A stretch of DNA of 64,000 bases, from the NCBI RefSeq assembly GCF_011045215.1, contig NZ_CP049201.1; one strand, written 5' to 3'. A model generated the notes under the pieces. It made no database searches and was not told where the DNA came from. It saw only the letters and a program-made list of their open reading frames with translations. Positions 38,337 to 56,490 of this stretch are shown here, in pieces; positions within the stretch are counted from its first letter, which is position 1; each line of letters opens with the position of its first letter. The stretch comes from Escherichia coli. GTDB taxonomy: Bacteria > Pseudomonadota > Gammaproteobacteria > Enterobacterales > Enterobacteriaceae. The position numbers and the translations under genes are program-made.

Positions 38337-40340
38337 TCATCCTTGTTGCTGAAGCATGGGGAATAATTGTTCGCACAGCAAAACACCGTTATTCATTGCT
38401 TCTACCCGTGCCTCGCTTTCTGTATTACGAAATTGTCCCAACACATGTGCCAGCCGATAAAAACCCACCGCGGTGAGGTCATTCGCCAGCAACTCTGCCT
38501 GACCAATAGCACTCTGTTCCTGATAGCGCCAGCCGTTATGGAGCAGTTGAATAAGTAATGCCTGGCAGCGCATCAGCAACTGATGAGCAGTAGACGGCAC
38601 AGGCAGAACGCTGGCAGAAGGTAGTGATGCCACCACAGGCGCAGTTTCTGCGTCCAGCGCCCAGGCACGAGTCTTTGTCATCATTACCTGTGGTTCCAGT
38701 GTCAATTGCCCATCAACAAAACTGACAAAGCCAGAAACCAGACACACGGGGTCGTCTGTTTGTTGCAAAAGCGCCGCCATGCGTTCAACGGCATAAGGCG
38801 CGCTGGCTGAGGCTGGCAGTGATAACGTCAGCAGATTATCTTCACCTTCGCCGCTGATTACCTGCGCATCCAGCGTTTGGCGGCTGCTATCCCAACCGAG
38901 TGAAATACACTCAGCGACCGGCAGAATAAATAAGTTATCGACCTGATTAAGAGGCCGTATGCAGGCGGGGGGACGCTGGCGTAAATATTCCCGCAAAGCC
39001 ACAATGCCCGGCTGGCGCAACGGCGCGCTCAACATTTGCCAGGCATCTGGCGACAGTGGAACAACACTACTCAAGCGGTTACGGGTCGCGAACAGCAGTT
39101 CGCCTTCGGCACTGCGACGCGCTGCTTGTGAAACAATTTGTCCACCTGCCAGTGCGCCAGCCTGAAAACTAAACAGCCGACGTTTTGCCGCGGGAGCGTT
39201 TTCTTGTTCGCTTCTCGGCCAACTACGCGAAAGATGCAAAATACTGCCGGTGTCGGGATCGGTAAACCAGATGCGTAAACCATAATGCTTAATATCCTGC
39301 CAGCAACGCATACCTAAAGACACCAGCCGCAGATGATCAAGCTTTGCTTCTCCGGCAATGCCAGAGCCAACGCCCGTGCGCCACGGCACAGGAGGAACTT
39401 CACCAACACTGTCGCGCCGGGCCATCTCTTGTGCGCAATTTAATCGACTGTTTAATGCCGCAAGCTGACGTAAGCATTCTCCGGCATGATAGTGGCTGGC
39501 GCGAGTGTGGAAGGCATCAACGCTTGCCCGTAGCTGTCGTAGTGATTCACTCACCCATCGCCAGTTGCAGCGTTCCGCCGCCTGCTGTGCGCGGCTGAAA
39601 GCGGCCTCGTAATGGATTGGCGGCTGGCTGATGCCGCCCAGCCATAATGCCTGACTTAATTGCTGAACATATTGACGACATGTTTTGCCTTCTTCGCTGG
39701 CAAACGGATCGTCAGATGATGTGACGTGTTCGCTGCGCATCTGCCAGATTAAATGAGTAAATTCCGCTTGCTGAGTTTTGGCCTCGACGAAGGCCTGCAC
39801 AGCCAGTACGACATGTTCGCAAAGTGTGCCTTCAATACAATCACAGCGGGCGAAGCGAATGCTGCTGCGGGAATAAAAACGCACATCACTCATCGGTAAG
39901 CGGGCTGAGGGAATTTTGCCAGGCGCACAGAACAACTCAATGGTGATGCCTTTAGCGACCAGCGCCTGTGCGCGTTTGCGGGTGGCATCGGGAAGGGTAG
40001 CCAGTTCTTCCAGCCAGATTGCCGGATCCCATTCCTCTTCTTTTCCCGTAGGCTGGGCGGTAGCACAAAGTCGTTGATAACTTAACACCAGCATCACGCG
40101 ATGACGGCACATGCCGCTGGCCCCGCAGCTGCACTGAGCCTCTTTCAGTGCCTGGCCGTTCGCCAGCTGGGTACGGACACCGTCACTGAAGGTGGCGATT
40201 AAAGCGCCGTTCTCATGGCTGATCTCCGGGACGTTGCCATTTTCCAGTTCCTTAAGACTGCGCTTAACAAAACCGGCATTGCTTAACGCTGTCAGGGCCT
40301 GCGGTGTCAGTTCTAATAATTCCGGACGTAGTGAATTCAT
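38337..40340 (-). CDS. yehQ: SWIM zinc-finger protein, last gene of the yehLMPQ module
   Basis: Two CxC-x(n)-CxH SWIM-type motifs (CSCGASGMCRHRV and CDCIEGTLCEHVV) near the N-terminus. The start is uncertain: ATG 40340 makes an ATGA overlap with the yehP stop, ATG 40364 is the alternative. Confidence 0.7.
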   Translation of the reverse strand: MNSLRPELLELTPQALTALSNAGFVKRSLKELENGNVPEISHENGALIATFSDGVRTQLANGQALKEAQCSCGASGMCRHRVMLVLSYQRLCATAQPTGKEEEWDPAIWLEELATLPDATRKRAQALVAKGITIELFCAPGKIPSARLPMSDVRFYSRSSIRFARCDCIEGTLCEHVVLAVQAFVEAKTQQAEFTHLIWQMRSEHVTSSDDPFASEEGKTCRQYVQQLSQALWLGGISQPPIHYEAAFSRAQQAAERCNWRWVSESLRQLRASVDAFHTRASHYHAGECLRQLAALNSRLNCAQEMARRDSVGEVPPVPWRTGVGSGIAGEAKLDHLRLVSLGMRCWQDIKHYGLRIWFTDPDTGSILHLSRSWPRSEQENAPAAKRRLFSFQAGALAGGQIVSQAARRSAEGELLFATRNRLSSVVPLSPDAWQMLSAPLRQPGIVALREYLRQRPPACIRPLNQVDNLFILPVAECISLGWDSSRQTLDAQVISGEGEDNLLTLSLPASASAPYAVERMAALLQQTDDPVCLVSGFVSFVDGQLTLEPQVMMTKTRAWALDAETAPVVASLPSASVLPVPSTAHQLLMRCQALLIQLLHNGWRYQEQSAIGQAELLANDLTAVGFYRLAHVLGQFRNTESEARVEAMNNGVLLCEQLFPMLQQQG

Positions 40341-41473
40341 GACTGAAGATTCTCCGCAAGCCATGATGCCAGCTCGCCCGGTGTCATGGCGGCTATTTGT
40401 GCGCCGACATTTACCAGCGCCTGGGCCGTATCGTGGTCATAGCAAGGCGTTGCTGTGCTATCGAGCGCTGCCAGTCCCAGCACTTTGATGCCGCTCTGGA
40501 CACACTTTTTCACCTGATGCGTCAGTAATGATGATGAACCCCCTTCGTAAAAATCGCTCACGAGGATAATGACGCTTTTCGCTGGTTGTTCAATAAGTTG
40601 CCGACCATATTCCACGGCACTGGCGATATTGGTTCCGCCGCCTAATTGCACTTTCATTAATAACTCTACCGGATCGGCAACGTCTGCCGTGAGATCAACC
40701 ACGCTGGTGTCAAACGCCACCAGATGGGTACGAATGCCGGGTAACTGCCATAAACAGGCCGCCATCACCGCAGAGTGGATCACCGAATCGACCATCGAGC
40801 CGCTTTGATCAACCAGTAAGACCAGTTGCCATTGTTCGCTTTGGCGTTTAATGCGGCTGTTAAAGCGGGGGGATTCGATATACAACTTGCCGTGTTGCGG
40901 GTGCCAGTGTTGCAGGTTGGCGCGCAGAGTACTTTTGAAATCAAAGTTTCGCGCCAGTGGAATAAATGAGCGGCGACGGCGATCGCGGACACCAGAAAAA
41001 GCCTGACGAACTTCCTTTGCCAGTCGAGCCATAATTTCTTCAACAACCTGGCGCACTATCCGGCGGGCGGCAGCCAGTACTTCGGGATTCATCAGATGTT
41101 TGGTGTGCAAAACGGCGCGTAGCAGGCTTTCAGAAGGCTGCATACGTTCCAGCACGTCGAGATTCGTCACCACATCTTCAATGCCATAGCGCAGTACGGC
41201 ATCGCTTTCCAGCCGCTCAATCACCTGTTGCGGAAACAGCGTGTGAATACTGTTGATCCACTCAGGGGTGGTGAGATTTGAGCCACCTAATCCACCGGAG
41301 CGTTCACCACGCTGGAGCCGTTCAGGATCGCGCCCATACAGCCACTCCAGCGCGTGGTCTACCTGCCGGGCATTGTCATCCAGCCCACAAAGGGTCGTTT
41401 CTGCCGCTTCGCCAAGAATTAATCGCCAGCGTTGTAGCTCACGGGTAGTCAGAAGATCGTTCAGTTCAGACAT
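40337..41473 (-). CDS. yehP: von Willebrand factor A (VWA) domain protein
   Basis: MIDAS-type motif LVLLVDQSGSM...T...D and a VWA-like fold signature; internal start MSELNDLL gives 378 aa and an 8-nt overlap with the yehM stop. Confidence 0.7.
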   Translation of the reverse strand: MSELNDLLTTRELQRWRLILGEAAETTLCGLDDNARQVDHALEWLYGRDPERLQRGERSGGLGGSNLTTPEWINSIHTLFPQQVIERLESDAVLRYGIEDVVTNLDVLERMQPSESLLRAVLHTKHLMNPEVLAAARRIVRQVVEEIMARLAKEVRQAFSGVRDRRRRSFIPLARNFDFKSTLRANLQHWHPQHGKLYIESPRFNSRIKRQSEQWQLVLLVDQSGSMVDSVIHSAVMAACLWQLPGIRTHLVAFDTSVVDLTADVADPVELLMKVQLGGGTNIASAVEYGRQLIEQPAKSVIILVSDFYEGGSSSLLTHQVKKCVQSGIKVLGLAALDSTATPCYDHDTAQALVNVGAQIAAMTPGELASWLAENLQS

Positions 41474-43745
41474 GGAAAACTCCCCAGTGTTGCAGCGATG
41501 CCAGTGCCTGCTGTTCGAGTTGTTGATGATGTGCAATGGCTTGCGGAGGATAATGCAACGGCATTTGCAGCGCTGAAACAGGAAGCTGCGCAAGCTGGTA
41601 ATGCTCAAGCACCTGATGCGCCAGTGTCCCGCGTTCTCGTGGCGGTAGCCAGGCCATCGCCGCGCGCAAATCGGGCAAGGCGTTAATAAAATCGTCGTCA
41701 CTCAGTTGATTTAAATGACTACTGAAACCGGCGATAAATGCTGGTTGGCAGGCCAATTGATGACGGGCGAGCGCCAGCAAACCGTGCAGCGCCTCGCCGG
41801 ATTGTGCCGGGGATAACTGCGCCAGCATCGTCAGCGCCGCTTCGGCACTGGCGTTGGGATGTTCCAGACGCATCAGTGCGCCAAGAGCCGCGCCGCGATC
41901 CAGCGCCGGGACATGAATCGCCTGACTGCGGCGCTCCAGTAAGGCTACCGCCGCAGAAAGAAAAACGCCGGGTAAATTAACGCCGCTATGTAGATCGCGC
42001 AGGATATGGCAAAGCGCCTGCCAGCTATGCATGTGAGCGTGAAACTCCTTTTCATCTGGTCTGCCGTTAGATTCACACAGCCACAGCGTGCGATCGATAG
42101 CCGCGCATAACGTCGTTTGTAATATCTGCGCGCCTTGCATACCGCTAATTTCATCCAGCCGCCATAAGGCATATAGCACTTCCAGCGCCTGGCCCATTTC
42201 GGCAAATTGATTTTCCTGGGCGATTAATAATGTGAGTTGCTCCAGTAATTGCTCACTAAAGCTCGCCAGGCCCGCTAACGCCGCCTGGCTTAGACATGCG
42301 GTAATGCTGCCGATTCCACCCGCGTCCAGCATATCGGCTTCTAATTTATTGCGTGCGGCTTCCTGGAGCGTGGCACCAAAGCAGGCGGCCTCAATTAATG
42401 CCGCATGCTGGCTAAGCGGCTGGGTTAATTTCCACTGTTCTTCACCGTTACCCGCAAGCGTCAGTGTACTTCCGTGCTGGCGCACAATGCCGGGAATCTC
42501 CAGTATTGCCAGCCGATGTAACACCTGACTTTGCGCTAGTCCATTGGGGTTAAAGCGATTTAAGGTAAGCTCCACCGGAAGAGAGATTGCGGTACGTTCC
42601 AGTTCGCAGGTGACATCTTTTGGCAGAGGCGGTTGTGGCGTAGAAGGGGCAAGTTTACCGAATCCGTCACCCGCTAATGTGTCTATCAACGTTAGCAGAA
42701 TCGGATCGGTGTCGGGATGAATAACTCCGCGATAGCTCCACGGCAACGGCGCGTTCAGGGCTTCTTTAATCAGCGAGCCTGCTATGGCATCCAGCCAGTC
42801 AGTGCGTAACGGTAGTTTATGTCCGCGCAACTGTGCCAGCGCCATCGCATGCAGATGAGCGGCAGCCATATCCGCGGTCGAAGCAGGCAAGTGGTGTTGG
42901 CGCAAACGGGTAAGAACCGTTTTTAGCAGTTGTTCTCCCGCCTGCTGTAAGCCCCACTGCCAGCACCAGCTTTGCCAGACCGGGGCAGGCATTCCTGAAA
43001 GGTATCCTGCCAGCACATCAAGGCGCTTTTCACTGTAGGGTGTGAGATAACAACCTGTAACGGCATCTGCCAGCGAGGGCAATTCTGGCTTGTTAATGTC
43101 CTGCGGGCATTCGCGCCACATTTTTGCCAGTGCCGGAGCGTGCCAGCCACCGCAGACGACTAACACGTCGCCATTATTTTGCTGCACCGCCCATGCAATC
43201 CAGCGAGCCATAAAGGCTTCGCGCTGACGATTGAGTGCATCGCCGGGGAAATCGCCCCGCAGTTGGGCAAAATAGTGCGCCAGTGCAGAGGGTAATGCAG
43301 TTTGCTGGCTTTCATCTTCGAACAAGTGATCCCACAGGGTATCGCTGTTATCCATGCGGGAGGCACGCAGCAGCAAGGTCTGGCTTTCCTCTTGCGTTTC
43401 AGGCGAATCGTCCTCTTCTTCACTCTGTGCCCAGCAAGGCAAATCGATGAAGTAAGTTTGTGCCTGAATACGACGAGCGGCTTGTAGCGCCTGCCACTCC
43501 GGCGAAAATTCAGCAAATGGCGTCCAGGCACCACGCCCGGGGGCTGCACCGTCCTGATACTGGCAATAACTGTAAATAGCTACCGGAAGCTGGTGGGCTA
43601 AAAACAGTTCGTCTACCCGGTCATTAAAATCAGCCGGGCCTTCAATCAACACGTATCGTGGCCGCTGGCTTTCGATTAACGATTTCACCAGCCGGGCGCA
43701 GGCCGGACTATGATGCCGGATGCCGACAATTAACGGCTCGCTCAT
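41466..43745 (-). CDS. yehM: Large (759 aa) protein of unknown function in the MoxR-VWA module
   Basis: Internal start MSEPLIVGIRHH... sits 10 nt after the yehL stop; no domain recognisable by eye. Confidence 0.7.
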   Translation of the reverse strand: MSEPLIVGIRHHSPACARLVKSLIESQRPRYVLIEGPADFNDRVDELFLAHQLPVAIYSYCQYQDGAAPGRGAWTPFAEFSPEWQALQAARRIQAQTYFIDLPCWAQSEEEDDSPETQEESQTLLLRASRMDNSDTLWDHLFEDESQQTALPSALAHYFAQLRGDFPGDALNRQREAFMARWIAWAVQQNNGDVLVVCGGWHAPALAKMWRECPQDINKPELPSLADAVTGCYLTPYSEKRLDVLAGYLSGMPAPVWQSWCWQWGLQQAGEQLLKTVLTRLRQHHLPASTADMAAAHLHAMALAQLRGHKLPLRTDWLDAIAGSLIKEALNAPLPWSYRGVIHPDTDPILLTLIDTLAGDGFGKLAPSTPQPPLPKDVTCELERTAISLPVELTLNRFNPNGLAQSQVLHRLAILEIPGIVRQHGSTLTLAGNGEEQWKLTQPLSQHAALIEAACFGATLQEAARNKLEADMLDAGGIGSITACLSQAALAGLASFSEQLLEQLTLLIAQENQFAEMGQALEVLYALWRLDEISGMQGAQILQTTLCAAIDRTLWLCESNGRPDEKEFHAHMHSWQALCHILRDLHSGVNLPGVFLSAAVALLERRSQAIHVPALDRGAALGALMRLEHPNASAEAALTMLAQLSPAQSGEALHGLLALARHQLACQPAFIAGFSSHLNQLSDDDFINALPDLRAAMAWLPPRERGTLAHQVLEHYQLAQLPVSALQMPLHYPPQAIAHHQQLEQQALASLQHWGVFHV

Positions 43746-43755
43746 GCATCTTTCC

Positions 43756-44844
43756 TCACGGCAGGCGGTGGCGGGCTTGATAATAAGCCTGCCAGTGAGC
43801 TTCTTTATGTGTGGCGACACGCTGTTCGAAGTAACGGCGCAGACGAGCGCGATCTTCTTCGTTATCTTTGACGATGGTTCCGGCAATACAGTCCACCAGG
43901 TCGGCAGGCTCCCCCGCGCGATTCGCTAAAAACCAGGCGCGGACGCCCACGGCGTGGGCCACGTTCACGGCTTCAGCGGTGGACATAATCGCTGTTAGTG
44001 TATCCATTGACGTTTTCTTTTCGCCGTTGGCACGCAGATCGCGGAAGGTGCGGACCAGTAACTCCAGTACCGCGTCAGGCACTTTATGCGGAATACCGCT
44101 ATGGGCCAGCAAACGCGCCGAAGCACTGGCGACAAGCTCCAGCTCTTGGGCGAAATCCATAATCGGAAAGACAGTTTCAAAATCGAAGCGACGCTTTAGC
44201 GCAGCACTCATTTCATTGACGCCGCGATCGCGGGTATTGGCAGTGGCAATAATATTAAAGCCTTCTCGCGCATAGAGCTGACTGGCTTCACCAGTGAGTT
44301 CCGGCACCGTCATCACCCTGTCAGAAAGCATACCTAACAGACAGTCTTGCACTTCCAGCGGTGTACGCGTTATCTCTTCAAAACGGACGATTTTGCCGTC
44401 GCGCATTCCCTGGTAAAGCGGGGCAGGGACCAGCGCTTCCGTTGATGGACCATGATTGATAAGCAGGGCGTAGTTCCAGCCGTACTTGATTTGATCTTCG
44501 GTAGTAGATGCGCCGCCCTGGATGGTTAACCCGGCATCGCCGCTAATAGAGGTTGCCAGTAATTCAGACAGGAGAGATTTTGCGGTGCCAGGTTCCCCCA
44601 CCAACATCAAACCGCGTCCGGTGGCAAGAGTGACTAACATACGTTCGACAGCGGAGGGACTAATCACCACTTTACGGCTAATATTTTGCGCGCTATCGCC
44701 AAGGATAAAAGCACGGGCCGCAGGCAAACTTAACTGCCAACCGGGCGGGCAAGGTGCGTTATCATTTTGTTTTAATTTTGCCAGTTCATCGGCGTATAAC
44801 ACAGCAGCAGGCGGACGCTGCAGATGATTATTCTGCGGTGACAT
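43756..44844 (-). CDS. yehL: MoxR-like AAA+ ATPase
   Basis: Walker A GEPGTAKS is encoded at 44575..44598 (read directly from the DNA); Walker B-like and sensor regions follow; internal start MSPQNNH... preceded by an SD gives 362 aa. Confidence 0.8.
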   Translation of the reverse strand: MSPQNNHLQRPPAAVLYADELAKLKQNDNAPCPPGWQLSLPAARAFILGDSAQNISRKVVISPSAVERMLVTLATGRGLMLVGEPGTAKSLLSELLATSISGDAGLTIQGGASTTEDQIKYGWNYALLINHGPSTEALVPAPLYQGMRDGKIVRFEEITRTPLEVQDCLLGMLSDRVMTVPELTGEASQLYAREGFNIIATANTRDRGVNEMSAALKRRFDFETVFPIMDFAQELELVASASARLLAHSGIPHKVPDAVLELLVRTFRDLRANGEKKTSMDTLTAIMSTAEAVNVAHAVGVRAWFLANRAGEPADLVDCIAGTIVKDNEEDRARLRRYFEQRVATHKEAHWQAYYQARHRLP

Positions 44845-44952
44845 ATATTCATCCCTGAAATGTATTAATGAAATAAACGATATTTTACGCGCAATAAATG
44901 TTTGGCGCATTAGTTGTTTGAGCGAAAAATATCTGGAAAGCAGATTACAGTA

Positions 44953-44990
44953 AATAAAAAAACCTGCTGGTGAGGCAGGTTCTTTTATTT
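44953..44990. terminator. Bidirectional rho-independent terminator in the yehK-yehL intergenic region
   Basis: 7-bp stem aacctgc/gcaggtt flanked by an A run upstream and a T run downstream, so it gives a U tract on either strand. Confidence 0.5.
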
Positions 44991-45276
44991 ACTATTTTCA
45001 GGCCTAACACCACAGCCTGTGCAACATCGTGTTCCAACGAACGAATTATAACCACGGCTGGACCCCGTTGCAATTAAGATAATGAGATTTATAATCCAGA
45101 CCGTTGGGACGTTGCGCCGGATCGAACCTATTTCAAGTCCTGGCTACCGGACGGGTGGTGCTGCAGGTGGTGCCCTGATCCGGAGTGCAACATCGTGGTC
45201 CAACATACGTAAACCAGTATCGACAGGCAGTGTAAGGGTAAGGTGCTGGTGTTGCGCTCCTTAATAAGGAGAGCGG

Positions 45277-45366
45277 ATGGACTCGCTGACACAAAAGTTA
45301 ACCGTGCTCATTGCTGTACTGGAGCTATTAGTAGCTCTGTTACGTTTGATTGATTTGTTGAAGTAA
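45277..45366 (+). CDS. Unannotated 29-codon hydrophobic/amphipathic peptide ORF (candidate small toxin-like membrane peptide)
   Basis: ATG preceded by SD aaggag (5 nt spacing); MDSLTQKLTVLIAVLELLVALLRLIDLLK; putative promoter ttgcaa-N16-tataat at 45068..45095; hairpin aaggggga-N7-tccccctt at 45389..45411. Confidence 0.35.
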   Translation: MDSLTQKLTVLIAVLELLVALLRLIDLLK

Positions 45367-45475
45367 CGGGCAAATTGAAACGCATCTAAGGGGGAAAACC
45401 GCTTCCCCCTTTAATAAAGCTATACTCGTCATACTTCAAGTTGCATGTGCTGCGACTTGAATTATCTAGAGTATA

Positions 45476-45793
45476 TTATTCTATTTCTTGGTTGAATATA
45501 TTCTGTAGTTCACGATTAAAAATTGCTATTACAGTTTCAGGTGATTCACCTCGTAATTTCCGCTCATCAATACACTCATCTCTTATATAAATCAACGCAT
45601 CATTTATTAGCGGGTCAGCATCTTCTCGATCACGTTGATGAAATGTTGGATGTAGCCGGAATCGCTCCAGTCGATAGACGGAACCTGTAAATAATTCAGA
45701 GCATTTATGGATCTCAAGTCTGAAGGAAAACGGATCTTCAGGTACAGGGACCTCATAATCGTAAATAGCAACCAGCTCTTTTTGCACGATCAT
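45476..45793 (-). CDS. yehK: Small acidic protein of unknown function
   Basis: 105 aa ORF 60 bp downstream of yehI on the same strand. Confidence 0.6.
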   Translation of the reverse strand: MIVQKELVAIYDYEVPVPEDPFSFRLEIHKCSELFTGSVYRLERFRLHPTFHQRDREDADPLINDALIYIRDECIDERKLRGESPETVIAIFNRELQNIFNQEIE

Positions 45794-45853
45794 CGCTTTC
45801 CCCGCTGGTAAGTCGTGTTGATAACGGGCAGTTGCATCACTGCCCGCTGTGTT

Positions 45854-48800
45854 TTAATGGAAAATGACGTCAGCTGCGCTTAACGCCTCACTCAAATCAA
45901 ACACATCGAGTTCGGCAAAAGTGACGGATTTATTGTTACGGTAAACCCGAAGAGAATGGAAGCTCATCAGCGCTTTGCTATCAGCACTGTAGTGGTTAAA
46001 ACCGGGTGAAAACTTAAGGACCAGCCGGTACTCACCCAGGTCATAGACAAATGCGTCCTCATAGCCTGACTCCCAGCCTTTGTATCGCATTCCCATAAGT
46101 TGCCCAACGGTAGCGGATTTACCTTCCCAGCGAGTCAGGCTGTTACTGGTTGACTCGTCAGGTGTGAGCAGCACCGTGCGGCGCGACAACTGGCGAAAAG
46201 GCGGCATAATTTCGTAATCGGCAAAAAGCTGTGCAAATTCACTGCGCATTTCTACTGTCATTTCTAACGGGTGGGCAATGCCAATCAGAGCGTCCGCAGG
46301 CAGGTCAATTGGCTCATCTTGCGCATTGCAGAACTCCCCCTCTGCGGCCACACGAAAGGCGTTGAGTAAACAACGCGGTTCATTTGCCGGATAAACCCCC
46401 CATATTAATCGCTGGGTAACCAGACGGGTAAAGGGATGATTAACAAACAGAGAATGAAAATCTGCCAGCGACCAGCGTCGGGTGGTACGTAGGGCCGTTT
46501 CAAGACGCGGGAGCAGGTTTTTGCTCACCTGAGTGGCATCTTTTTTTAGCCCTTTTAGTTGGGCCAGTGCCTCGGGCGCTTTCAGTTGATCGTCATCGGC
46601 GCGCAACCGGGGAACGCTTTTCTGGCGAACGTTTTGCTGATCAAAGATAATCGGGTTGAGGTTTTCATCGAAGCGAACGGTAAACTGCCGGGGACCAAAA
46701 TCAAAAATCAACGCCTGCGGATCATCAAGGCCAAGGGTTGGGACTAATCTGTCCGCTAGCTCTTCCTGGCTTAGCCCGCGATTTTCTGCGACCACCTGAA
46801 GAAATTCCGCCGCGTTATCACGTAAGGGGCGGGATTTAGCCCGTTGCGATATATGATGCAGCTGTATCAGCGCCATATCATTATTCATCAGGGTAAGGAT
46901 GTTCAGGCCGCTGACAGCACGGGCAGATTTGCCTTCTTGTGGCCAGGCGAGGATCTGTGTCGTCAGATCCCGTGCCGTGCTTTCGTCACCAAAGAGACTT
47001 AACGCCAGAAATGCCCAGTTGTCTTTTGCGGGGGCACCAGCTTGTTGCCACGCAGTGAAGAGATCCCAGGCAAAAGCTGCCAGCGTTTGTGGCTGGCAGA
47101 ACGTTTTCAGTTGTTCCAGCCCGCTATAAAAACGTCCCCCCTGGGTAAAGCGCAGCATTTCGCCGAAAATTTCCAGAGCGTCATCGGTAACAGTTTGATT
47201 ATTAGTGATAAGGCGCGGCCTGGACCACATTTGCGGATGCCAGAAATCAGGGGCTTTTGGAATGCGTGCCGGGTAAATCTCTATTGGACTCTGTTTAAGT
47301 AATTGTTCCAGGGCAGGCCATAGATCTGTACGCTGCCAACGATTGGCTAAAGTTTGTAGCAATTCGCCATGCCCATGTTCGTAAAGTAAACGCAGGGCAA
47401 GTAATGCAGCTTCGCTTTTATCGCTGGATTTGGTGAAGACAAGAGGGATAAGTGCAGTAGCCGTATGTTCCGGCCAATGTAAAATCCACTGGCGAGCCAG
47501 ATTACGCTGGCCCGCAAAACGGTGCCAGACGCGGGCAATGGGCAGGGCCAGTTCTGTTGCGCCGAAATTTAAAATTAACGGAAATGTTTCTTTTGGACGA
47601 TGTGAAAAAGCCAACAGCAGACCTGGTAGCGCATCCAATCCGAGGATACTGAGAAAATAGTCCTCACCCGCGAACAGATGCTTTTTCTCATTGATACGCA
47701 GCCAGAAGGTCAAAGCTATCTCACGCGGCAACTGTGCCAATAAATACAGGTTCCAGACACTCTTTTCCGGACGATAACGTGAGTAGTTGTCATTTTCCCA
47801 TATGTTAATTAACGCTTCTACGTGACCACTGCGAAGCGCCTGTTCTGCTAATGGTGCTTCCGGGGAGTTCCAGCCATTCAGGATCTCTTCAACCCGCCCC
47901 TGGTAGTAATGCCACTCAACAATGAGTGAATTGCGTGCAGCATCCAGTTTTCCGGGGAGTATATAATTCAAAAACAGCCATACATCATCCCCAAAACCCA
48001 GTTCCTGTAATACAACTCGCCCACTTTTTTGTTCCATGCGTTCCGCAAGAGATTCCGTGCTGAAATAACGGGCAGGCTCAGTGGCGGCAAGCCTCTCTCG
48101 TTCGCCTGGTTGCCAGTAAACTTGCGGAGTTAATTCGAGCCGTGCCAAATCAAGACGTGGAGCTGTCATTTTTTTCTTACTACGCCACGGTGGTGAAACG
48201 AGGATTTCAGGCAGATTGCTGTTATCGGTGCCATCAATAACCGGTTTTGGCAGTGCCGATAAATAACTCTTCAGCACTGCCCTGGCTTGAGTACTTAACC
48301 ACGGCATCACTTCTGCTGCCAGTTGTGGCTGCGATGCCATCAGCGTTTGTAACAGCGTACGCCAGTATTCATCGCGTGCTTTTTGCTGTGCAGGCAGCTT
48401 TTTGTCTTCGATGATTGGATAACCAGGGCGGGCTGGTGGTTCTGTTAACGCCAGCAGTTCTGCCAGTGCGGCGAGCGTCGCATGGGGGAAGTTTTTATGG
48501 TATTTAGCTACACGTTGCAGGCTGGGTTTGTTTTTATCAGCCACCAGTAGCAAGGTGCGGATGACTTGCGGATGGTTAATTTGTACCAGCAGACTGCCGC
48601 AATCTTCTTTATAGGCATACATCGCGAGGCGCGGAATGGCTGCCAGTCCTTGTTCGCGCAAAAGGGCGGCGCAGGCCGCGTAGCCGAAGTGGTTTTCATG
48701 CGACATGTAGCTGGCTTCTCGATCGCTAAATATATCCTGGCTCCAGTAGTGTTCGAGTTTTCTCACCGCTGTGGGGTCATTAGCTACAACTTTTAACCAC

Positions 48801-49486
48801 TCCTTAGAATGAAAATGAGTTCGCGGGCATTCAAGGCCTACCAACTCATTGGCTATTTCTGGTTTTTCCGGGAGGATCAGCGCAATAAAAGGGCGGCGAA
48901 CTTTGGTTATTCCTGGTAGTGCGGCAATGAGTTTGTCGGCGCAACGCTGCCAGCAGCTTTCCTCTGCCAGAGAGAGGTGTTTACGCAGTCGGAGATCGAA
49001 TTCGTTATAGGTTTCTGAGCGATAACCATAGCCATAGTCCTCGTTCTGATACTGCAATGTGACTACCAGAGGATCACTCTCATAACACCGTGCAATAAAC
49101 TGGCGTGCAATCACCACCTCAGTCGCATATTCCAGCCCCTCTTGTTGGACGATTTCGTCGAGCAACTGTTGGCTGTCATTTTGCGCGATACAGGCTAGCG
49201 CCGCCATTGTCCGGGCCGGGATTGAGGGTTTGTGTTCGCCGATCAAGTTGATGGCCTGCGTGATGGCGGACTGCCACTCCAGTGAAAAATTTTCATAACG
49301 CCAGACAATGTTTTTTTTCTTCTCAGCTTTTTGTAGCAATTCATCACCCAGTGTCTGAATGATGCTTTCAGTGATAACAGGCACTGGTTCGCCCGGCCAA
49401 TTGCGATGGCTGAGTGGTGTTTTACCCTTTTTATATTTCAGTTCCAGTTGGGCGTTATCAGCCAGCCACGGTAATTCCTTGTCCAT
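45854..49486 (-). CDS. yehI: Giant DUF4132-family protein (MolR paralog lacking the N-terminal WGR segment)
   Basis: 1210 aa; C-terminal ~450 aa aligns by eye with the C-termini of the two upstream paralogs. Confidence 0.8.
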   Translation of the reverse strand: MDKELPWLADNAQLELKYKKGKTPLSHRNWPGEPVPVITESIIQTLGDELLQKAEKKKNIVWRYENFSLEWQSAITQAINLIGEHKPSIPARTMAALACIAQNDSQQLLDEIVQQEGLEYATEVVIARQFIARCYESDPLVVTLQYQNEDYGYGYRSETYNEFDLRLRKHLSLAEESCWQRCADKLIAALPGITKVRRPFIALILPEKPEIANELVGLECPRTHFHSKEWLKVVANDPTAVRKLEHYWSQDIFSDREASYMSHENHFGYAACAALLREQGLAAIPRLAMYAYKEDCGSLLVQINHPQVIRTLLLVADKNKPSLQRVAKYHKNFPHATLAALAELLALTEPPARPGYPIIEDKKLPAQQKARDEYWRTLLQTLMASQPQLAAEVMPWLSTQARAVLKSYLSALPKPVIDGTDNSNLPEILVSPPWRSKKKMTAPRLDLARLELTPQVYWQPGERERLAATEPARYFSTESLAERMEQKSGRVVLQELGFGDDVWLFLNYILPGKLDAARNSLIVEWHYYQGRVEEILNGWNSPEAPLAEQALRSGHVEALINIWENDNYSRYRPEKSVWNLYLLAQLPREIALTFWLRINEKKHLFAGEDYFLSILGLDALPGLLLAFSHRPKETFPLILNFGATELALPIARVWHRFAGQRNLARQWILHWPEHTATALIPLVFTKSSDKSEAALLALRLLYEHGHGELLQTLANRWQRTDLWPALEQLLKQSPIEIYPARIPKAPDFWHPQMWSRPRLITNNQTVTDDALEIFGEMLRFTQGGRFYSGLEQLKTFCQPQTLAAFAWDLFTAWQQAGAPAKDNWAFLALSLFGDESTARDLTTQILAWPQEGKSARAVSGLNILTLMNNDMALIQLHHISQRAKSRPLRDNAAEFLQVVAENRGLSQEELADRLVPTLGLDDPQALIFDFGPRQFTVRFDENLNPIIFDQQNVRQKSVPRLRADDDQLKAPEALAQLKGLKKDATQVSKNLLPRLETALRTTRRWSLADFHSLFVNHPFTRLVTQRLIWGVYPANEPRCLLNAFRVAAEGEFCNAQDEPIDLPADALIGIAHPLEMTVEMRSEFAQLFADYEIMPPFRQLSRRTVLLTPDESTSNSLTRWEGKSATVGQLMGMRYKGWESGYEDAFVYDLGEYRLVLKFSPGFNHYSADSKALMSFHSLRVYRNNKSVTFAELDVFDLSEALSAADVIFH

Positions 49487-49495
49487 GCTCTTTCC

Positions 49496-52400
49496 TTATT
49501 CAAACAGGGCTTCAATATCGTTAATTAGCTCGCTGGCGGTGATGGCATCGAGTACGGAGAACAGCGCTTCCTGTGTTGAATTACTCCCCCAGCCATAGCT
49601 TTCCGCTTTGCCTTCCCATAGCCACAGCTTGCTTAAGAGCTGCTCAGCGCTAAGTTCGGCTGGTGACATACCCACTGCAAAGCCTTCATCGATTTCCATG
49701 ATTAACGACCAGCGGCCCAGAGGTTTGATCATCCAGCCGATCCAGCCTCCATCCTGTGGTTCGCCCTTTATCCAGCCTTTATTCGCCAGCCCCATTACCC
49801 GACCGCTCGGGCATTTTCTGCCTGCCCAGCGGGTCAGTTCGCTGGCGTTGCGCTCGGCTTCTGTCAGGGCGTAACTGTTACGGTCAAGCTGGCGGAACGG
49901 TGGTAACAGTTCGTAGTCGGCAAAAAGCTGACCAAAGGCGGCAGCATCCGTCGGTGATATTTCCAGAACGTGAGGAATACCAATAGAGATATCGCCTTCC
50001 GGCAGGGTGAAAAGATCATCGTCAGCGGTGCTGTAGCTGTTATCTTCCGCTACGCGAAAGCAAGCCTGCAGCTGGTTTTCGGCGCTATAAACGCCCCAAA
50101 TCAGACGGCGGGTTAAGTGGCGAACCAGCGGATGCTCAACCAGGAAGAGCTGAAAGTTTTCCGGTGACCAGCGGCGACGCAGGCACATGGCGGATTCCAG
50201 CCTTGCTACCTGCTGGGCGGCGACGGTACGCGCATCTTTTTTCAGCAGTTTGTAGCGGTTAACAGCATCGTTCGCCTGTGATTCATCATCGCTTTTGTTT
50301 GGTTTGGGCAGGTCTTTCAGACGGCTGCCAGAAACATCACGCACAAACGGTTTTAAGGTTTCATCAAAGCTGACGGTGAACTGGCGTGAGCCGAAATCCA
50401 GCAGCAACGAACCGTTATCATCCAGACCGAGATCCGGTGCTAACCGATCTTCAAGCTCTGCCACCGTGAGTTCGCGGCTTTCGGCAATGTCGGCAATTTT
50501 TTCTTTTGCCCGCTCCTGTAATGCTTTGAATTTCAGTTTCTGGGCAATACCGTTAAGCTGCATCAGGGCGATATCACTACCGATAGCGGCGAGAATATCC
50601 AACCCAACGGTGGCGCGTTTATGCTGGGATTCACCAGGCCAGGCGCGTATTAATGGCGTCAGTTTGCGGGCGGTGTCATCGTTACCAAGAACGCCTAACG
50701 CAGTGAACGCCCAACTCTCTTTCGACGGTGCGCCCGCAGTCAGCCAGGCGGTAAACAGATCCCAGGCAAATTCAGCCAGTGAGTCGGCGGTACAGGCATC
50801 TTTCACCTGCAATAATCCCGGATACAGGGCCTCTTCCTGAGGGAAGCGGAGCATTTCACCGAGGTGCTGGAGTGCGCTATCTGGCAGTACCTTGCTGCTA
50901 TTTTTGAGTTTCGGGCGAGTCCATAATGGAGGTTGATAAAACAACGGTAAAGGGGGGATTTTCGCCGGGTATTTACCCACAGGACTGTTGTCGTTATTTT
51001 TATTTTGAGTTTCCCAGGGCGGCGAGACTAGTACCATTGGTAGAATTTCTGAGTTTGCAAAATCTTCATTGCGACTATTCAGCAATTGCTGACATTGTTG
51101 CAATAAATTTACCGCTTGCGACGATAATCCGATGACTAATTTTTCGACCAATAAAGGATTTGCATTAAGTAATGAAACCAGCAACGTATGTTTGCGTTTA
51201 TCATCTTTTTTTACCAATGCTTCGGCTAATGCCGCTATCGTGGCAGAAGGAAAATTTTCGGCACTTTTTATTAGTCGTTCATAACAGCGTTTATTAGTAT
51301 CGGCGGCTTCGATGAGTGCCGTAATGGCCAACGGATGATTAATACATTTCAGTACGTCACCGCAATTATCTTCTTCAGCATAGGGAGCCAGGCGAGCCAG
51401 TGCCGCTATACCTTGCTCCCGTAATACCGTAGCTGACCAACTGGCACCATAGGTGTTAAATACATCAATGTATTGATAGTTCTCCAGTATTTCGAGCGTG
51501 AATGGATCTGTCGCTACCAGTTTCAACATTTCAAGTTGTGGAACATCTGCGACCTGGTGTAAACGATGTACGATCTCATGGGCCACTTCGGGTATTTCTG
51601 GCATTAAAATGGCAATTAACGGTTGGCGATAGAGTGATATATCTGGTAACGCAACGAGTAATTTTGCAATGCAATTTTGCCATACTTCTTCTTCTGCTAG
51701 TGATAAATGTTTACGCAGACGTAAACTAAATTTGTCGTTATTCCTTCTATAACTGTCCTTGCTGCTATCTGCATAATTAATAAAGAAAGTCAAATGTTCA
51801 TCTTTATAGTCAAAATCGAAATCAATTTGCCACCAGAAGATGACAGTTTCAGTTGCGTATTCGATACCGAAGGTGCTTACAATTTCATCCAGCAACTCGG
51901 ATGAGGTTTCATCATTCCAGCCCTGACAAAAACATATTTCCAGAAAAGTAAGTACCGCCATAGTACGCGCGGGTATCTTAGTCTTTTGGGCCTTAATTAA
52001 GCTGATTGCCTGGCTAATCGCATCAGCCCATTCATCAGAGCATGAGCTGTAATCGAAAGTCAGATTTTTATAATAATGATAAGTACGATTTGCCAATCGG
52101 GAAATTAAATTTTGTTTCTCGGGTTTGGTTGGTTTTTTTACTGGCTCTCCCGGCCAAAGGCGGTGGCTGAGGGCATGGCGGGCAATATTCGGGGGAAGAA
52201 TAATGGGATCGTTGTCTGCCAGCCAGGGTAAACCATTAGTTGCTGCCTGGCGATTTATTGAGGCTTTTTCCTCTGTGACCAGGACTTTCTTTGCTGAGGC
52301 ATCATGTGAGTGAGCGTTAGCGTCTACTTGCTCCACATACCCCTTCTTCACCTTCTCCGCAATCAGCTTCAGTGCTGCTTTTTCCGCCGCCGCAGTATCT

Positions 52401-52528
52401 GCAAAGCTTTTTACCTGACTTTGCCCGTTGGTACCGACTTTACCCCAGTTAATATGCAGCTCGTTTCCCTGCTGCTCCACCGCCCAGAATTTATGTGATT
52501 TTTCGTCCTGATAAATATAGGTTTTCAT
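49496..52528 (-). CDS. WGR-domain / DUF4132 protein, middle MolR-family paralog
   Basis: 1010 aa; N-terminal 65 aa nearly identical to the upstream paralog; C-terminal half ~70% identical to it; central part AT-rich and divergent. Confidence 0.75.
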   Translation of the reverse strand: MKTYIYQDEKSHKFWAVEQQGNELHINWGKVGTNGQSQVKSFADTAAAEKAALKLIAEKVKKGYVEQVDANAHSHDASAKKVLVTEEKASINRQAATNGLPWLADNDPIILPPNIARHALSHRLWPGEPVKKPTKPEKQNLISRLANRTYHYYKNLTFDYSSCSDEWADAISQAISLIKAQKTKIPARTMAVLTFLEICFCQGWNDETSSELLDEIVSTFGIEYATETVIFWWQIDFDFDYKDEHLTFFINYADSSKDSYRRNNDKFSLRLRKHLSLAEEEVWQNCIAKLLVALPDISLYRQPLIAILMPEIPEVAHEIVHRLHQVADVPQLEMLKLVATDPFTLEILENYQYIDVFNTYGASWSATVLREQGIAALARLAPYAEEDNCGDVLKCINHPLAITALIEAADTNKRCYERLIKSAENFPSATIAALAEALVKKDDKRKHTLLVSLLNANPLLVEKLVIGLSSQAVNLLQQCQQLLNSRNEDFANSEILPMVLVSPPWETQNKNNDNSPVGKYPAKIPPLPLFYQPPLWTRPKLKNSSKVLPDSALQHLGEMLRFPQEEALYPGLLQVKDACTADSLAEFAWDLFTAWLTAGAPSKESWAFTALGVLGNDDTARKLTPLIRAWPGESQHKRATVGLDILAAIGSDIALMQLNGIAQKLKFKALQERAKEKIADIAESRELTVAELEDRLAPDLGLDDNGSLLLDFGSRQFTVSFDETLKPFVRDVSGSRLKDLPKPNKSDDESQANDAVNRYKLLKKDARTVAAQQVARLESAMCLRRRWSPENFQLFLVEHPLVRHLTRRLIWGVYSAENQLQACFRVAEDNSYSTADDDLFTLPEGDISIGIPHVLEISPTDAAAFGQLFADYELLPPFRQLDRNSYALTEAERNASELTRWAGRKCPSGRVMGLANKGWIKGEPQDGGWIGWMIKPLGRWSLIMEIDEGFAVGMSPAELSAEQLLSKLWLWEGKAESYGWGSNSTQEALFSVLDAITASELINDIEALFE

Positions 52529-52540
52529 TGTTAAATCCTT

Positions 52541-55500
52541 TTAATCAAACAGTGATTCAATGTCGTTAATCAGCTCGCTGGCGGTGATGTCGTCGAGCAT
52601 GGAGAAAGTGGGTGAGGATTGTTTACCATAGCGATCATAAGGGGCGGTGATTTTTACGCTTTCGACAGGCAGCAGGTCGCTATACCCCGTTTCGCCATAA
52701 ATTAATGAAAAAGGTTCCGTTTCAAGTTCGAGAGCACCATAAGGGGTAGATTTGCGCATCGCATAGACGCTGCCGCTTTCTTCCAGACGTTGCCAGCCTC
52801 GGCGTTCCAGCCCGACAATGCGTCCGGCCTGGCAGAGACGTCCGTTCCAGCGTGACAATTCATGGACATTACGTTCGTTATCAGCAAGGTGGTAACTACC
52901 ACGTTCGAACTGTTGGAAAGGGGGAAGCAGTTCGTAATCAACGTAAATTTGCCTGAATGCAGCGGCGGATTCAGGGGGGATTTCCAGCACATGCGGTATA
53001 CCGATGTTTCCTGCTGGCAGCGTGAATAACTCATCCTGCGCATCGCTGTAAGTGCTGTCTTCTGCCACGCGAAAACAGGTGATAAGAGCGTTTTCATCGT
53101 TATAACCCCCCCATAACAGCCGTCGGGTTAAGTGACGTACCAGCGGATGCTCCACCAGAAACAGGCGGAACTGCTCTGCCGTCCAGCGTCTGCGCTGGCA
53201 CATAGCCTGTTCCAGACGGGTAATTTGCTGGCTGGCGATAGCACGAACATCTTTTTTCAACTGTTTGAAGAGATTAACTGCGTCAGTTGCCAGTGTTTTA
53301 TCATCGCTCTGGTTTGGCTTAGGTAAATCTTTCAGGACTTTGCCGTTTGCATCGCACACTACAGGTTTTAAGGTTTCGTCAAAACCAACGGTGAATTTGC
53401 GGGGGCCGAAATCCAGTGTCAGCGAGCCACTGCTATCAAGCCCTAAATCTGGAGCCAGGCGGTCTTCCAGTTCAGCCATAGTCAGCCCACGGTTTTCAGC
53501 AACTATGTTGATTTTCTCGCGGGCATGTTCCTGTAATGCTTTGAATTTAATTTTTCGCGCGATGCCATTAAGCAGCATTAGCGCAACATCGCTGCCAATA
53601 TCAGCTAATACATCCAGCCCGGACACCGCCCGTTTATGCTGGGATTCCCCAGGCCAGGCGCGGATAAGCGGGGTTAATTTACGCGCGGTGTCGTCATTGC
53701 CTAAAATCCCAAGCGAAGTAAATGCCCAGTTTTCTTTTGCGGGTGCGCCAGCTTCTGTCCAGGCGGTATACAGATCCCAGCCAAATTCAGCCAGTGATTC
53801 GCGGGTGAAGATTTCTCTAATGATATCCAGCCCAGCGTAGGCGGTAATGTCGCGAGGAAAGCTCAGCATAGTGCCGAGGTGGCGCATAGCGTCATCTGAC
53901 AGAGGCAGGTTGTTACTTTTAAGCCGTGGTCTGCGCCACAAGGTGAACTGATAAAAGCCGGACAGTGGGGCGATTTTAGCGGGATATTCTTCCAGTGGGT
54001 CGCTATCGAACAATGTTGCCAGCGCAGCTAAAACATCAGGTTGGTTGTATCCCTGGGCGATTTCCTCAATCGTTTCTCGCTGGTTTAAATTCACCAGCAG
54101 ACGAAGCGCCTGGCGGGCACAATCACGATCTTTTCCCTGTTTGCCCAGGGCCACAGGAAGTAGCCCGGCGGCGGCATGGCGTGGGTAGTCAGTTAGCCAG
54201 TTTCGCGCATCTTCATAAGACATTTTTTTCTGTAGCTGTTGCGCCATCGGTAAGGCCAGTTCACTGACACCGAGGAAGAAGGTGAAGAAGCACAGGCGTC
54301 GTGGATTACGTTGCAGACAGGTCATAAATGCAGGTATGGCGGCGCTACCAAAAATTGCCAGAATATTTTCCTCACCAGAGTAGTTATCTTCTTTGACTAT
54401 CTGGTTAAGAAAAGAAATGGCCTGTTGACCAGGCAGGTAACAGAGGGCCATGAGATCCCAGCTTTTGTATGCATTGTTATGGTATTGCGCAAATTCAGCA
54501 TTGAGTGCTGGAAAATCGAAGCGTAGCAGGGCATCAACGGCGCTTTGTGGGGCCGGAATTTTTTCGTATATTTTCTCTCCGCTTTCCCGCCATTTTTCAA
54601 AACCAAGATGCCACAGTATTTGTTGCTCCGGTGTAAGCGGTATTAATTGTTTCTCCCAGCTTGCTTTTTTCATCGGCGGCAGGTCGGTAAACAATGTTTG
54701 TTTTGTCGCCTGCTGTTGGGCTATTTGCTGGAAGCGGGTGACAAGGTAAGTACGGGTTAGTCTTTTGGCAATCTCGGGAGTGACATCAGAAACAGAAGGA
54801 ACTGGAAGCACAGGAAGATCAAACACAGGCGTATTTTTCTTTTTCTCTTTGGTCATCCAGGGCGGCGAAACAAGCAGTTGTGGCAACATATCCGCAGTGG
54901 CGTATTCACACACTTCAGTCACAGGTTGCAGGCGACATTCAGATAAGATGCCAGCGGCTTTGGCATTCACCCAGGGAATGACGTCGCATACTAACTCTGG
55001 CGTGGCGGTAATCAGTTTGACAAGCGCTTTACGCCACTCTTTATCTTCATGTATTGCCAGCAAAGTAGCATAAGCCGCAATAGCCGCAGCGGGATGCTTT
55101 TGACTGGCCTTGCTTAAGTATTCCAGGTGCTTTTTCTTACCAATTACACCGAGGATCAGAATTTGAATCGCATCCGGGTGATTAGTTTTCCATAGCCATT
55201 TGACAAGATTTTCAGTCTCGCTGATGCGTTCGAAGAGATAAGTGGGATTGTCAGAATGGTCTTCCGTAAACTCAAGAAGTATCCGGCTTACACCGCGCAC
55301 CCCATTATTTGCCAACAACATTGCCAGATAAGCGCGAAAATTACGAAAATCACGATACAACGGTGGGAAGTCGTATTTTTCCACTGTACTCAGAGCAGTA
55401 TCATCGGTTATCACCAGTCTTAACCAGGCCATCGCCGGGACGTTTTGGTCTGCATAGCGTAGAGCTATAGCATGGGCGATATCCGGGCGTTCAGGGAGCA

Positions 55501-56350: not shown

Positions 56351-56490
56351 TCTGCATCCCTGTAATTTTATCCAGTTAAATGCAGATGCTACCAGTATTT
56401 ATGCGGGTTAGAGAGAGACAAAATCGCAAGAAAACAACTTTAGGAATTTATAAAGAAAAGGCGCTGTCGATGCAGCGCCTTGAAGGGGGA

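Follow-up and report, generated by a model that had tools for sequence, protein, structure and literature searches.

The window analysed here is a segment of 64,000 nucleotides (nt) of the Escherichia coli chromosome (contig NZ_CP049201.1), with the gene order btsSR-yehS-yehR-yehQPML-yehK-yehI-...-metG. Its genes yehL, yehM, yehP and yehQ were found to be the constant core of a widely conserved five-component module, the fifth and variable part of which consists of one to three DUF4132 proteins. In the window, this fifth component is present three times, as molR, as a paralog of 1010 amino acids (aa) and as yehI. The yehLMPQ arrangement goes far beyond what can be expected by chance. The module genes of the window are the following:

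38337..40340, minus strand: yehQ, 667 aa; SWIM finger(s), a helical bundle, a probable tandem oligonucleotide/oligosaccharide-binding (OB) fold and a C-terminal helical bundle
40337..41473, minus strand: yehP, 378 aa; CoxE-like adaptor with a VWA domain and a metal-ion-dependent adhesion site (MIDAS)
41466..43745, minus strand: yehM, 759 aa; DUF5682
43756..44844, minus strand: yehL, 362 aa; MoxR-class AAA+ ATPase of the YehL subfamily
45854..49486, minus strand: yehI, 1210 aa; DUF4132 paralog without a WGR domain
49496..52528, minus strand: extra WGR and DUF4132 paralog, 1010 aa; without a full-length counterpart in K-12
52541..56350, minus strand: molR, 1269 aa; intact WGR and DUF4132 paralog, the first gene of the array

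Gene Order and Coupling

An earlier, sequence-only reading of the region had described four minus-strand genes whose three junctions are a gap of 10 nt and overlaps of 8 nt and of the ATGA type. Both the list of open reading frames (ORFs) and the sequence bear this out. The yehL stop codon (TGA, 43758-43756) is followed by a 10-nt gap, inside which GGAAAG was read directly from the sequence, and then by the yehM ATG (43745). The 8-nt overlap runs from the yehP ATG (41473) to the end of the yehM TGA (41466), and the yehP TGA overlaps the yehQ ATG (40340) as ATGA. The motifs quoted in that reading are present (GEPGTAKS in YehL, DQSGSM in YehP, CSCGASGMCRH and CDCIEGTLCEH in YehQ), and its identification of a MoxR-class AAA+ ATPase, of a VWA/MIDAS protein (the MIDAS being complete), of a protein with SWIM fingers and of a large partner proved correct for each protein. 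Translational coupling of all four genes is likewise upheld. The -4/-1 overlaps recur in orthologous loci of other phyla.

RefSeq annotates yehLMPQ in E. coli in the same way, and at least 80% of the block is present in 5202 of 5426 complete genomes. The E. coli copies occupy a single locus between yehR and metG and are chromosomal except in three places. Matches to E. coli “plasmids” were disregarded: several of these records are chromosome-sized (4.8-4.9 Mb), and the rest are 0.18-1.4-Mb records with near-identical copies of the chromosomal locus.

Distribution Across Bacteria

Loci were fetched from an alignment of YehM homologues, one genome per species, and the window proteins were mapped onto these 80 loci. 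The order [DUF4132 x1-3]-YehL-YehM-YehP-YehQ, on one strand, was found in about 80 species of five phyla and on two plasmids. It occurs in Enterobacterales (Escherichia, Klebsiella, Erwinia, Serratia), Burkholderiales (Massilia, Variovorax and Burkholderia, the last with the DUF4132 gene after yehQ), Xanthomonadales (Stenotrophomonas, Tahibacter), Myxococcota, many Actinomycetota (Lentzea, Actinomadura, Glycomyces, Microbispora and others) and, in Acidobacteriota, one metagenome-assembled genome of Thermoanaerobaculia. All five gene types are carried by a Bacillus mycoides plasmid and by a 76.8-kb mobilizable Iodobacter plasmid.

In every complete locus yehP lies two genes 3' of yehL, and the -4/-1 start/stop overlaps between the four core genes are conserved across loci. 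A DUF4132 gene stands 5' of yehL in nearly all loci examined. The earlier description of a four-gene unit was therefore too narrow, since the WGR/DUF4132 genes (molR, the 1010-aa paralog and yehI) co-occur with the core in nearly every locus examined. When all flanking ORFs of the 80 loci were clustered, only synteny within genera came to light, without a sixth conserved component or any gene for DNA repair or defence that recurs next to the module. Natural YehM-YehP fusion proteins occur in five separate clusters at 50% identity, which argues for physical contact between YehM and YehP.

Some loci depart from the common layout. One (L083; GCA_022841245.1, contig JALHRW010000058.1, 3227..23468) carries two tandem copies of the module. 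Its first copy has a YehM-YehP fusion; in the second, a HEAT_2 protein replaces the DUF4132 gene. A gene for an ATP-dependent DNA ligase lies divergently upstream, which is a lone case. In a few Burkholderiales, Neisseriales and Rhodocyclales, extra DNA of 0.8-1.5 kb was seen inside the otherwise overlapping operon, either between yehM and yehP (L024, L026, L028) or between yehP and yehQ (L074).

The MoxR ATPase YehL and the VWA Protein YehP

YehL matches the Pfam family AAA_5 with an E value of 1.6e-33, and AAA_3 far more weakly (0.014). In 74 orthologs, the Walker A motif GEPGTAKS, the Walker B-like VRFEEITR, the sensor-1 TAN and RDRGVNEMSAALKRRF are invariant or nearly so, and the same holds for ALKRRF, which contains the arginine finger. 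The Walker B motif is E-E, not D-E. Identity between E. coli YehL and its orthologs in Actinomycetota and Burkholderiales is 60-77%, and the closest solved sequences are AAA modules of midasin/Rea1 (5e-10 to 8e-9). YehL is the founding and name-giving member of the YehL subfamily in the Snider and Houry classification of MoxR ATPases, where its function was not given (PMC3893208). YehP matches Pfam VWA_CoxE at 6.7e-72, and its complete MIDAS (DQSGS ... GGGT ... DFYEGG) is invariant in 73 orthologs. A search of PDB sequences with YehP as a single-sequence query returned nothing significant.

As in RavA-ViaA, CbbQ-CbbO, NorQ-NorD and CoxD-CoxE, a MoxR AAA+ gene is here coupled to a VWA gene with a complete MIDAS. 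One could propose that the module is a classical maturation chaperone which inserts a metal or cofactor, perhaps molybdenum, in the manner of CoxD/CoxE, NorQ/NorD or CbbQ/CbbO. The membership of YehP in the VWA_CoxE family and the intact, coupled MoxR-VWA pair agree with this proposal, as do the NCBIfam matches of the module proteins, which are weak, bear generic ATPase or VWA names and lead to GvpN and cobaltochelatase. In addition, molR (“molybdate metabolism regulator”) owes its name to genetic work of 1990 on the use of molybdate, which PMC8533742 cites. However, in none of the 80 loci is a metalloenzyme or cofactor-biosynthesis gene conserved beside the module. The yeh module adds three partners to the classical pair: YehM (DUF5682/TIKI-like), YehQ (SWIM/OB-like) and the WGR/DUF4132 proteins. 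Their domains are a hydrolase fold and types known from nucleic-acid proteins (SWIM, OB-like, WGR), not domains that handle cofactors. The module further differs from the classical pairs in that no enzyme client is adjacent and in that YehL fits AAA_5 (the dynein/midasin type) far better than AAA_3. It also counts against a chaperone that K-12, in which molR and yehQ are pseudogenes, is a common strain for studies of molybdoenzymes. A chaperone of this kind is considered improbable.

The module shares with midasin/Rea1 the logic of an AAA_5 ring, a MIDAS and a long helical linker or scaffold, and midasin pulls its partner by a MIDAS-Glu contact. Unlike midasin, which is a single chain of 5000 residues with six AAA modules, the yeh parts are separate proteins.

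YehM

YehM belongs to Pfam DUF5682 (6e-99), a family of about 3,300 clusters at 50% identity. According to its predicted structure, the N-terminal domain (about residues 1-240) has a TIKI/TraB/ChaN/erythromycin-esterase-type fold, in which this superfamily's core, a parallel beta-sheet, can be recognized by structural similarity, and the remainder of the protein is modelled as a C-terminal HEAT/MIF4G-like helical scaffold. The fold is also that of the toxin effectors HopBA1 and RRSP. YehM differs from the TIKI/TraB-PrgY/ChaN/erythromycin-esterase superfamily (PMC6254334) in that it has no detectable sequence similarity to any member, and in that its domain is fused to a helical scaffold of 500 residues and encoded in a MoxR-VWA operon.

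The motifs G8-x-x-H11, IE35GP, SPE83, ID101LP, R175E176 and G199-x-x-H202 are invariant in 20 homologues of the proteobacterial type. In 12 distant homologues, the one from Bacillus included, H11, E35, E83, R175/E176 and H202 are kept; both motif glycines vary, and the leucine of IDLP varies in one sequence. H11, E35, E83, E176 and H202 are candidate catalytic His/Glu residues.

YehQ

Against the Pfam SWIM family, the first finger of YehQ scores 9.7e-4 and the second 0.21. The zinc ligands of the first finger (C70, C72, C78 and H80) do not vary among 22 orthologs. Those of the second finger are kept in Proteobacteria and in two of the four aligned Myxococcota/delta-type loci, and its cysteines are lost in Actinomycetota and in the other two. 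The earlier label “double SWIM” thus holds for Proteobacteria, with both motifs present in E. coli YehQ, and for the former two Myxococcota/delta-type loci, but not for the family as a whole, where only the first finger is universal.

The predicted model of YehQ (predicted local distance difference test, pLDDT, 89) has an OB-like centre, for which two programs gave matches to RPA, Stn1, Teb1, POT1 and CTC1; the Foldseek matches are sub-threshold (E >= 0.026). On the basis of the model, a tandem OB fold is probable. A search of PDB sequences with a YehQ profile found nothing significant.

WGR/DUF4132 Proteins

All 40 aligned paralogs of the fifth component match DUF4132, and 20 of them match WGR. 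The 1010-aa paralog of the window matches WGR at 1.4e-18 and DUF4132 at 8.6e-52, and the N-terminus of MolR is near-identical to the WGR of this paralog. YehI, named “DUF4132 domain-containing protein YehI” in RefSeq, begins at LPWLAD, a motif that comes after the WGR domain in other paralogs. Nearly all paralogs end in a conserved helix, LDP[IV]xASE[LI][IL]xD[LM]xxL, which MolR carries as ...ITASELINDIESLFD. A profile of the DUF4132 family gave only weak, alphaRep/HEAT-like matches against PDB sequences, and these lie in the middle region.

The WGR domains of the module and the OB-like folds of YehQ resemble the PARP-type WGR and the OB folds of RPA, CST and POT1, where they are modules that bind DNA ends and single-stranded DNA. 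Unlike PARPs, the yeh WGR proteins have no PARP catalytic domain, and the OB similarity of YehQ is below significance.

Variation and Selection in Escherichia coli

In K-12, yehQ has an internal stop codon and molR is frameshifted, so that both are pseudogenes; this may explain why phenotypes have not been reported. In strain PapM-32-1, molR and all module genes are intact, and the DUF4132 array is 99.9% identical to that of the window. At least 80% of 49496-56350, which holds the two extra paralogs, was found in 530 of the 5426 E. coli genomes. Most of the remaining genomes that were sampled have a single DUF4132 gene of the K-12 type in its place. The K-12 “molR” pseudogene (L001, 24832..28627) turned out to be a chimera of the paralogs of window 49496..56350: its 5' end resembles the molR of the window (94% nt identity), its 3' half resembles the 1010-aa paralog (94% nt), and its middle is only about 70% similar to either one, a pattern which suggests that tandem DUF4132 paralogs have recombined. 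The GC content of the window falls to 0.41 around 51000-52000.

Between strains, yehQ and yehM show 94-95% nt identity, compared with 97.5-99.4% for most flanking genes. Across Escherichia, the ratio of non-synonymous to synonymous substitution rates (dN/dS) is 0.04-0.06 for yehL, 0.04-0.08 for yehP, 0.09-0.14 for yehM, 0.08-0.11 for yehQ and 0.15-0.29 for yehI. The values of 0.04-0.14 for the four core genes indicate purifying selection and show that these genes are not generally decaying.

These values bear on the possibility that the module is the decaying cargo of an old horizontal transfer and has no function in E. coli now. Such a relic would fit the pseudogenes of K-12, the shortened YehQ and YehM sequences among database members (roughly 10%), the silencing by H-NS (PMC3686432) and the deletion of the region in Shigella sonnei lineages 2 and 3 (PMC12795559). 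However, purifying selection across Escherichia species largely refutes it; full-length genes dominate among the database members, and the catalytic motifs are invariant across phyla. We regard a functionless relic as very improbable.

Regulation and the yehK-yehL Spacer

Three further features of the window lie upstream of the core genes or of the array:

44956..45031 (minus strand) and 45277..45366 (plus strand): zorO-orzO type I toxin-antitoxin locus in the yehK-yehL spacer
45476..45793, minus strand: yehK, a 105-aa ORF between yehI and yehL, of doubtful module membership
56360..56375, strand not assigned: LexA (SOS) box-like CTG-N10-CAG just 5' of the molR start codon

The LexA-box-like sequence, AACTGGATAAAATTACAGGG, is located 10-25 nt upstream of the molR ATG and has one mismatch to the CTG-N10-CAG pattern. 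The pattern occurs 18 times in the window against 17 expected, which is not above chance. The case for a LexA box at molR therefore comes from the literature, in which molR appears in a list of genes that LexA regulates and that have a known SOS box (PMC6590174). Another activator of the molR promoter is BglJ-RcsB (PMC3950696). In Deinococcus, one WGR protein and one DUF4132 protein belong to the DdrO radiation-response regulon (PMC8533742). In hns/stpA mutants, yehL and yehM are de-repressed, and an intergenic H-NS site has been reported (PMC3686432).

The yehK-yehL spacer is 631 nt long in the window and 306 nt in K-12-like strains, which are without the insert. It encodes an OrzO-P antitoxin small RNA (Rfam, 99.9 bits) and, on the opposite strand, a ZorO-like toxin ORF of 29 aa (MDSLTQKLTVLIAVLELLVALLRLIDLLK), and divergent promoter-like sites were seen at about 45045-45095. 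A report on S. sonnei places zorO beside yehL and yehM in a lineage-specific deletion. No sigma-70-like promoter was found in 44845..44955, between the terminator-like hairpin of OrzO (44961-44981) and the yehL start. Transcription of yehLMPQ in this strain may depend on read-through or on a weak, H-NS-silenced promoter. The gene yehK is confined to the Escherichia loci among the 80 that were mapped, and it matched no family in the PADLOC and NCBIfam scans.

A Proposed Nucleic-Acid-Directed Remodeller

The interpretation that we put first, tentatively and a little short of an even chance, is a five-component, ATP-driven MoxR/MIDAS remodeller aimed at nucleic-acid-bound targets. YehL would form a MoxR-type AAA+ ring, and YehP would be its VWA adaptor, whose MIDAS metal would hold a partner or target by an acidic residue, as in CbbQ-CbbO, NorQ-NorD, RavA-ViaA and midasin. 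YehM would bind YehP and provide a helical scaffold together with a predicted hydrolase centre of the TIKI/TraB/erythromycin-esterase type. YehQ, with its SWIM and probable tandem OB domains, and the WGR domains of MolR-type proteins may bring the complex to nucleic acid, probably to single-stranded or broken DNA. The interchangeable DUF4132 proteins would dock via the conserved C-terminal SE[LI]xxD helix, a putative docking element, each serving as an alternative sensor or adaptor. With the hydrolysis of ATP, a protein bound at the nucleic-acid site would then be remodelled and possibly cleaved by YehM. The array would be switched on from the LexA-controlled molR promoter, with yehLMPQ additionally silenced by H-NS. 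Gene order and coupling across phyla, domain and fold assignments, conserved motifs, fusions and purifying selection were observed; that the proteins form a complex, that it is directed to DNA, that it has hydrolase activity, and its role in the cell are inferred.

In favour of the remodeller are the gene order with its overlaps, which is kept across phyla, and the lack of any other gene family conserved in the flanks. To these are added the YehM-YehP fusions, the invariant ATPase and MIDAS motifs, the likeness of YehL to midasin modules, the invariant SWIM finger and OB-like matches of YehQ, the WGR domains in 20 of 40 DUF4132 paralogs and their shared C-terminal helix. The listed SOS box at molR, the Deinococcus regulon, the de-repression of yehL and yehM in hns/stpA mutants and the low dN/dS values of the core also speak for it.

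Several observations weigh against this interpretation. The TIKI likeness of YehM is structural alone, as Pfam and PDB sequence searches found nothing, and ChaN and PMT, which are members of the TIKI-type fold, are not enzymes. The OB-fold assignment of YehQ comes from the sub-threshold matches given above, and half of the DUF4132 paralogs, YehI among them, are without a WGR domain. As for regulation, no LexA-type box was found upstream of the arrays in the 80 orthologous loci with either the gamma/beta consensus or the actinobacterial Cheo box. SOS control can therefore not be generalised and may be confined to Escherichia. Finally, the 631-nt spacer, with zorO-orzO and terminator-like hairpins, separates the molR promoter from yehLMPQ in the window.

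A bolder and rather doubtful version of the remodeller would be a so far unrecognised, phylum-spanning class of machine for nucleic-acid surveillance, in which rapidly diversifying WGR/HEAT/DUF4132 receptors sense damaged or foreign DNA or DNA-bound proteins and recruit the midasin-like motor, and a YehM protease cleaves the trapped target. If true, the module would be a remover of DNA-protein crosslinks or stalled complexes, or a new immune system, and would have been missed because two of its genes carry inactivating mutations in K-12.

Relation to Defence Systems

The sequence-only reading had matched the block to nucleoside triphosphate (NTP)-dependent conflict systems. Like the ternary vWA-MoxR-VMAP and MoxR-vWA-beta-propeller systems (PMC10910872), the yeh module has a MoxR and vWA core with extra components and is enriched in Actinomycetota and Myxococcota. 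Unlike in those systems, the accessory proteins are of different families, and YehL matches Pfam bpMoxR only weakly and in part (0.0021, residues 51-102, about 50 in all). No beta-propeller was found in the Pfam scans or in two predicted models of yeh proteins. Pfam named no VMAP or effector-associated domain, and no search with dedicated models was made. PADLOC gave no family at E <= 0.01 for YehL, YehM, YehP, YehQ, YehK or YehI. With no PADLOC match, the weak bpMoxR hit and a single locus in 96% of E. coli genomes, the resemblance to conflict systems amounts to an analogy only.

The idea that the block behaves as a mobile defence island was not supported either, given the one locus in 5202 of 5426 E. 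coli genomes and the neighbours of the module in other bacteria. Thirty flanking proteins were sampled from 16 genera; they include RpoH, KefC, a TonB receptor, malic enzyme and a GGDEF protein, and none is a genuine defence protein. Three of these neighbours matched PADLOC models and were set aside, as they share only generic sigma-factor, permease and kinase domains. The sole counter-example among the neighbourhoods is the Iodobacter plasmid copy, which directly adjoins a type I restriction-modification (R-M) system, insertion sequence (IS) elements and an integrase.

A phage origin was also considered. YehM, YehP, YehQ, YehK, and YehI with its paralogs (window 38337..56350) gave full-length matches of very high score to PHROG families. 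A phage origin on this ground was rejected, as the matches are near-identical and go to small, high-numbered families; most likely these families are E. coli chromosomal DNA that was swept into prophage predictions, that is, contamination of the viral library. The sole match in the phage collection searched is an “UNVERIFIED” faecal contig with homologues of YehL, YehM and YehP, which was judged to be probably bacterial, and the module was not found in the verified phage genomes of that collection.

An anti-phage or anti-mobile-element immune system would nevertheless be compatible with part of the data. In such a system, the WGR/DUF4132 proteins would sense foreign nucleic acid or proteins, the MoxR-VWA pair would transduce the signal and YehM, as a TIKI-type hydrolase, would be the effector. 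From strain to strain in E. coli, the DUF4132 genes of the array differ in number and sequence around a constant core; at least 80% of the stretch with the two extra paralogs is found in only 530 of the 5426 genomes, and the K-12 copy is chimeric. yehQ and yehM diverge more than most flanking genes. The module is self-contained and stands in unrelated contexts in different genera, it is found on plasmids, in Iodobacter next to the R-M system, IS elements and integrase, and its hosts are largely Actinomycetota, Myxococcota and Burkholderiales with large genomes. The YehM fold is common to the toxin effectors HopBA1 and RRSP, and the genes are silenced by H-NS (PMC3686432). On the other hand, none of the six proteins matches a PADLOC model, 96% of E. 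coli genomes carry the block at one fixed locus among housekeeping neighbours, none of the 30 sampled flanking proteins is a genuine defence protein, and no verified phage genome was found to carry the module. Unlike most defence genes, those of the core are very conserved, with strong purifying selection, and a recognisable nuclease, TIR, pore or NADase effector was not seen. Immunity is therefore less favoured than the remodeller described above and appears unlikely, though more probable than a cofactor chaperone or a relic. The sequence-only reading had stated that no function could be assigned from the sequence, and this is still true for the biological role, where we slightly prefer a function in DNA damage or stress to one dedicated to defence against phages.

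Significance

In the literature searched, no functional studies of yehL, yehM, yehP, yehQ, DUF5682 or DUF4132 were found. The genes and the YehL subfamily have long been known; the system is an uncharacterised MoxR-VWA variant with three accessory families that occur in no studied MoxR system. New with respect to that literature are the definition of five parts, the assignment of DUF5682 to the TIKI-type fold, an OB-like centre in YehQ, the conserved helix with its putative docking role and the defect of K-12.

YehL is one of only two MoxR ATPases of E. coli and gives its name to a whole MoxR subfamily, which has waited for a functional assignment ever since these ATPases were classified. What looked like a four-gene oddity becomes a five-component system in which YehL would be the motor and YehP its MIDAS adaptor, with YehM as a predicted hydrolase, YehQ as a protein that likely binds single-stranded DNA and the WGR/DUF4132 proteins as swappable receptors. 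As K-12 has only pseudogenes of yehQ and molR, wild isolates are to be preferred for experiments. Should the module act on invading DNA, or on proteins bound to DNA once damage has occurred, a new mechanistic class would be added to bacterial genome maintenance or immunity.

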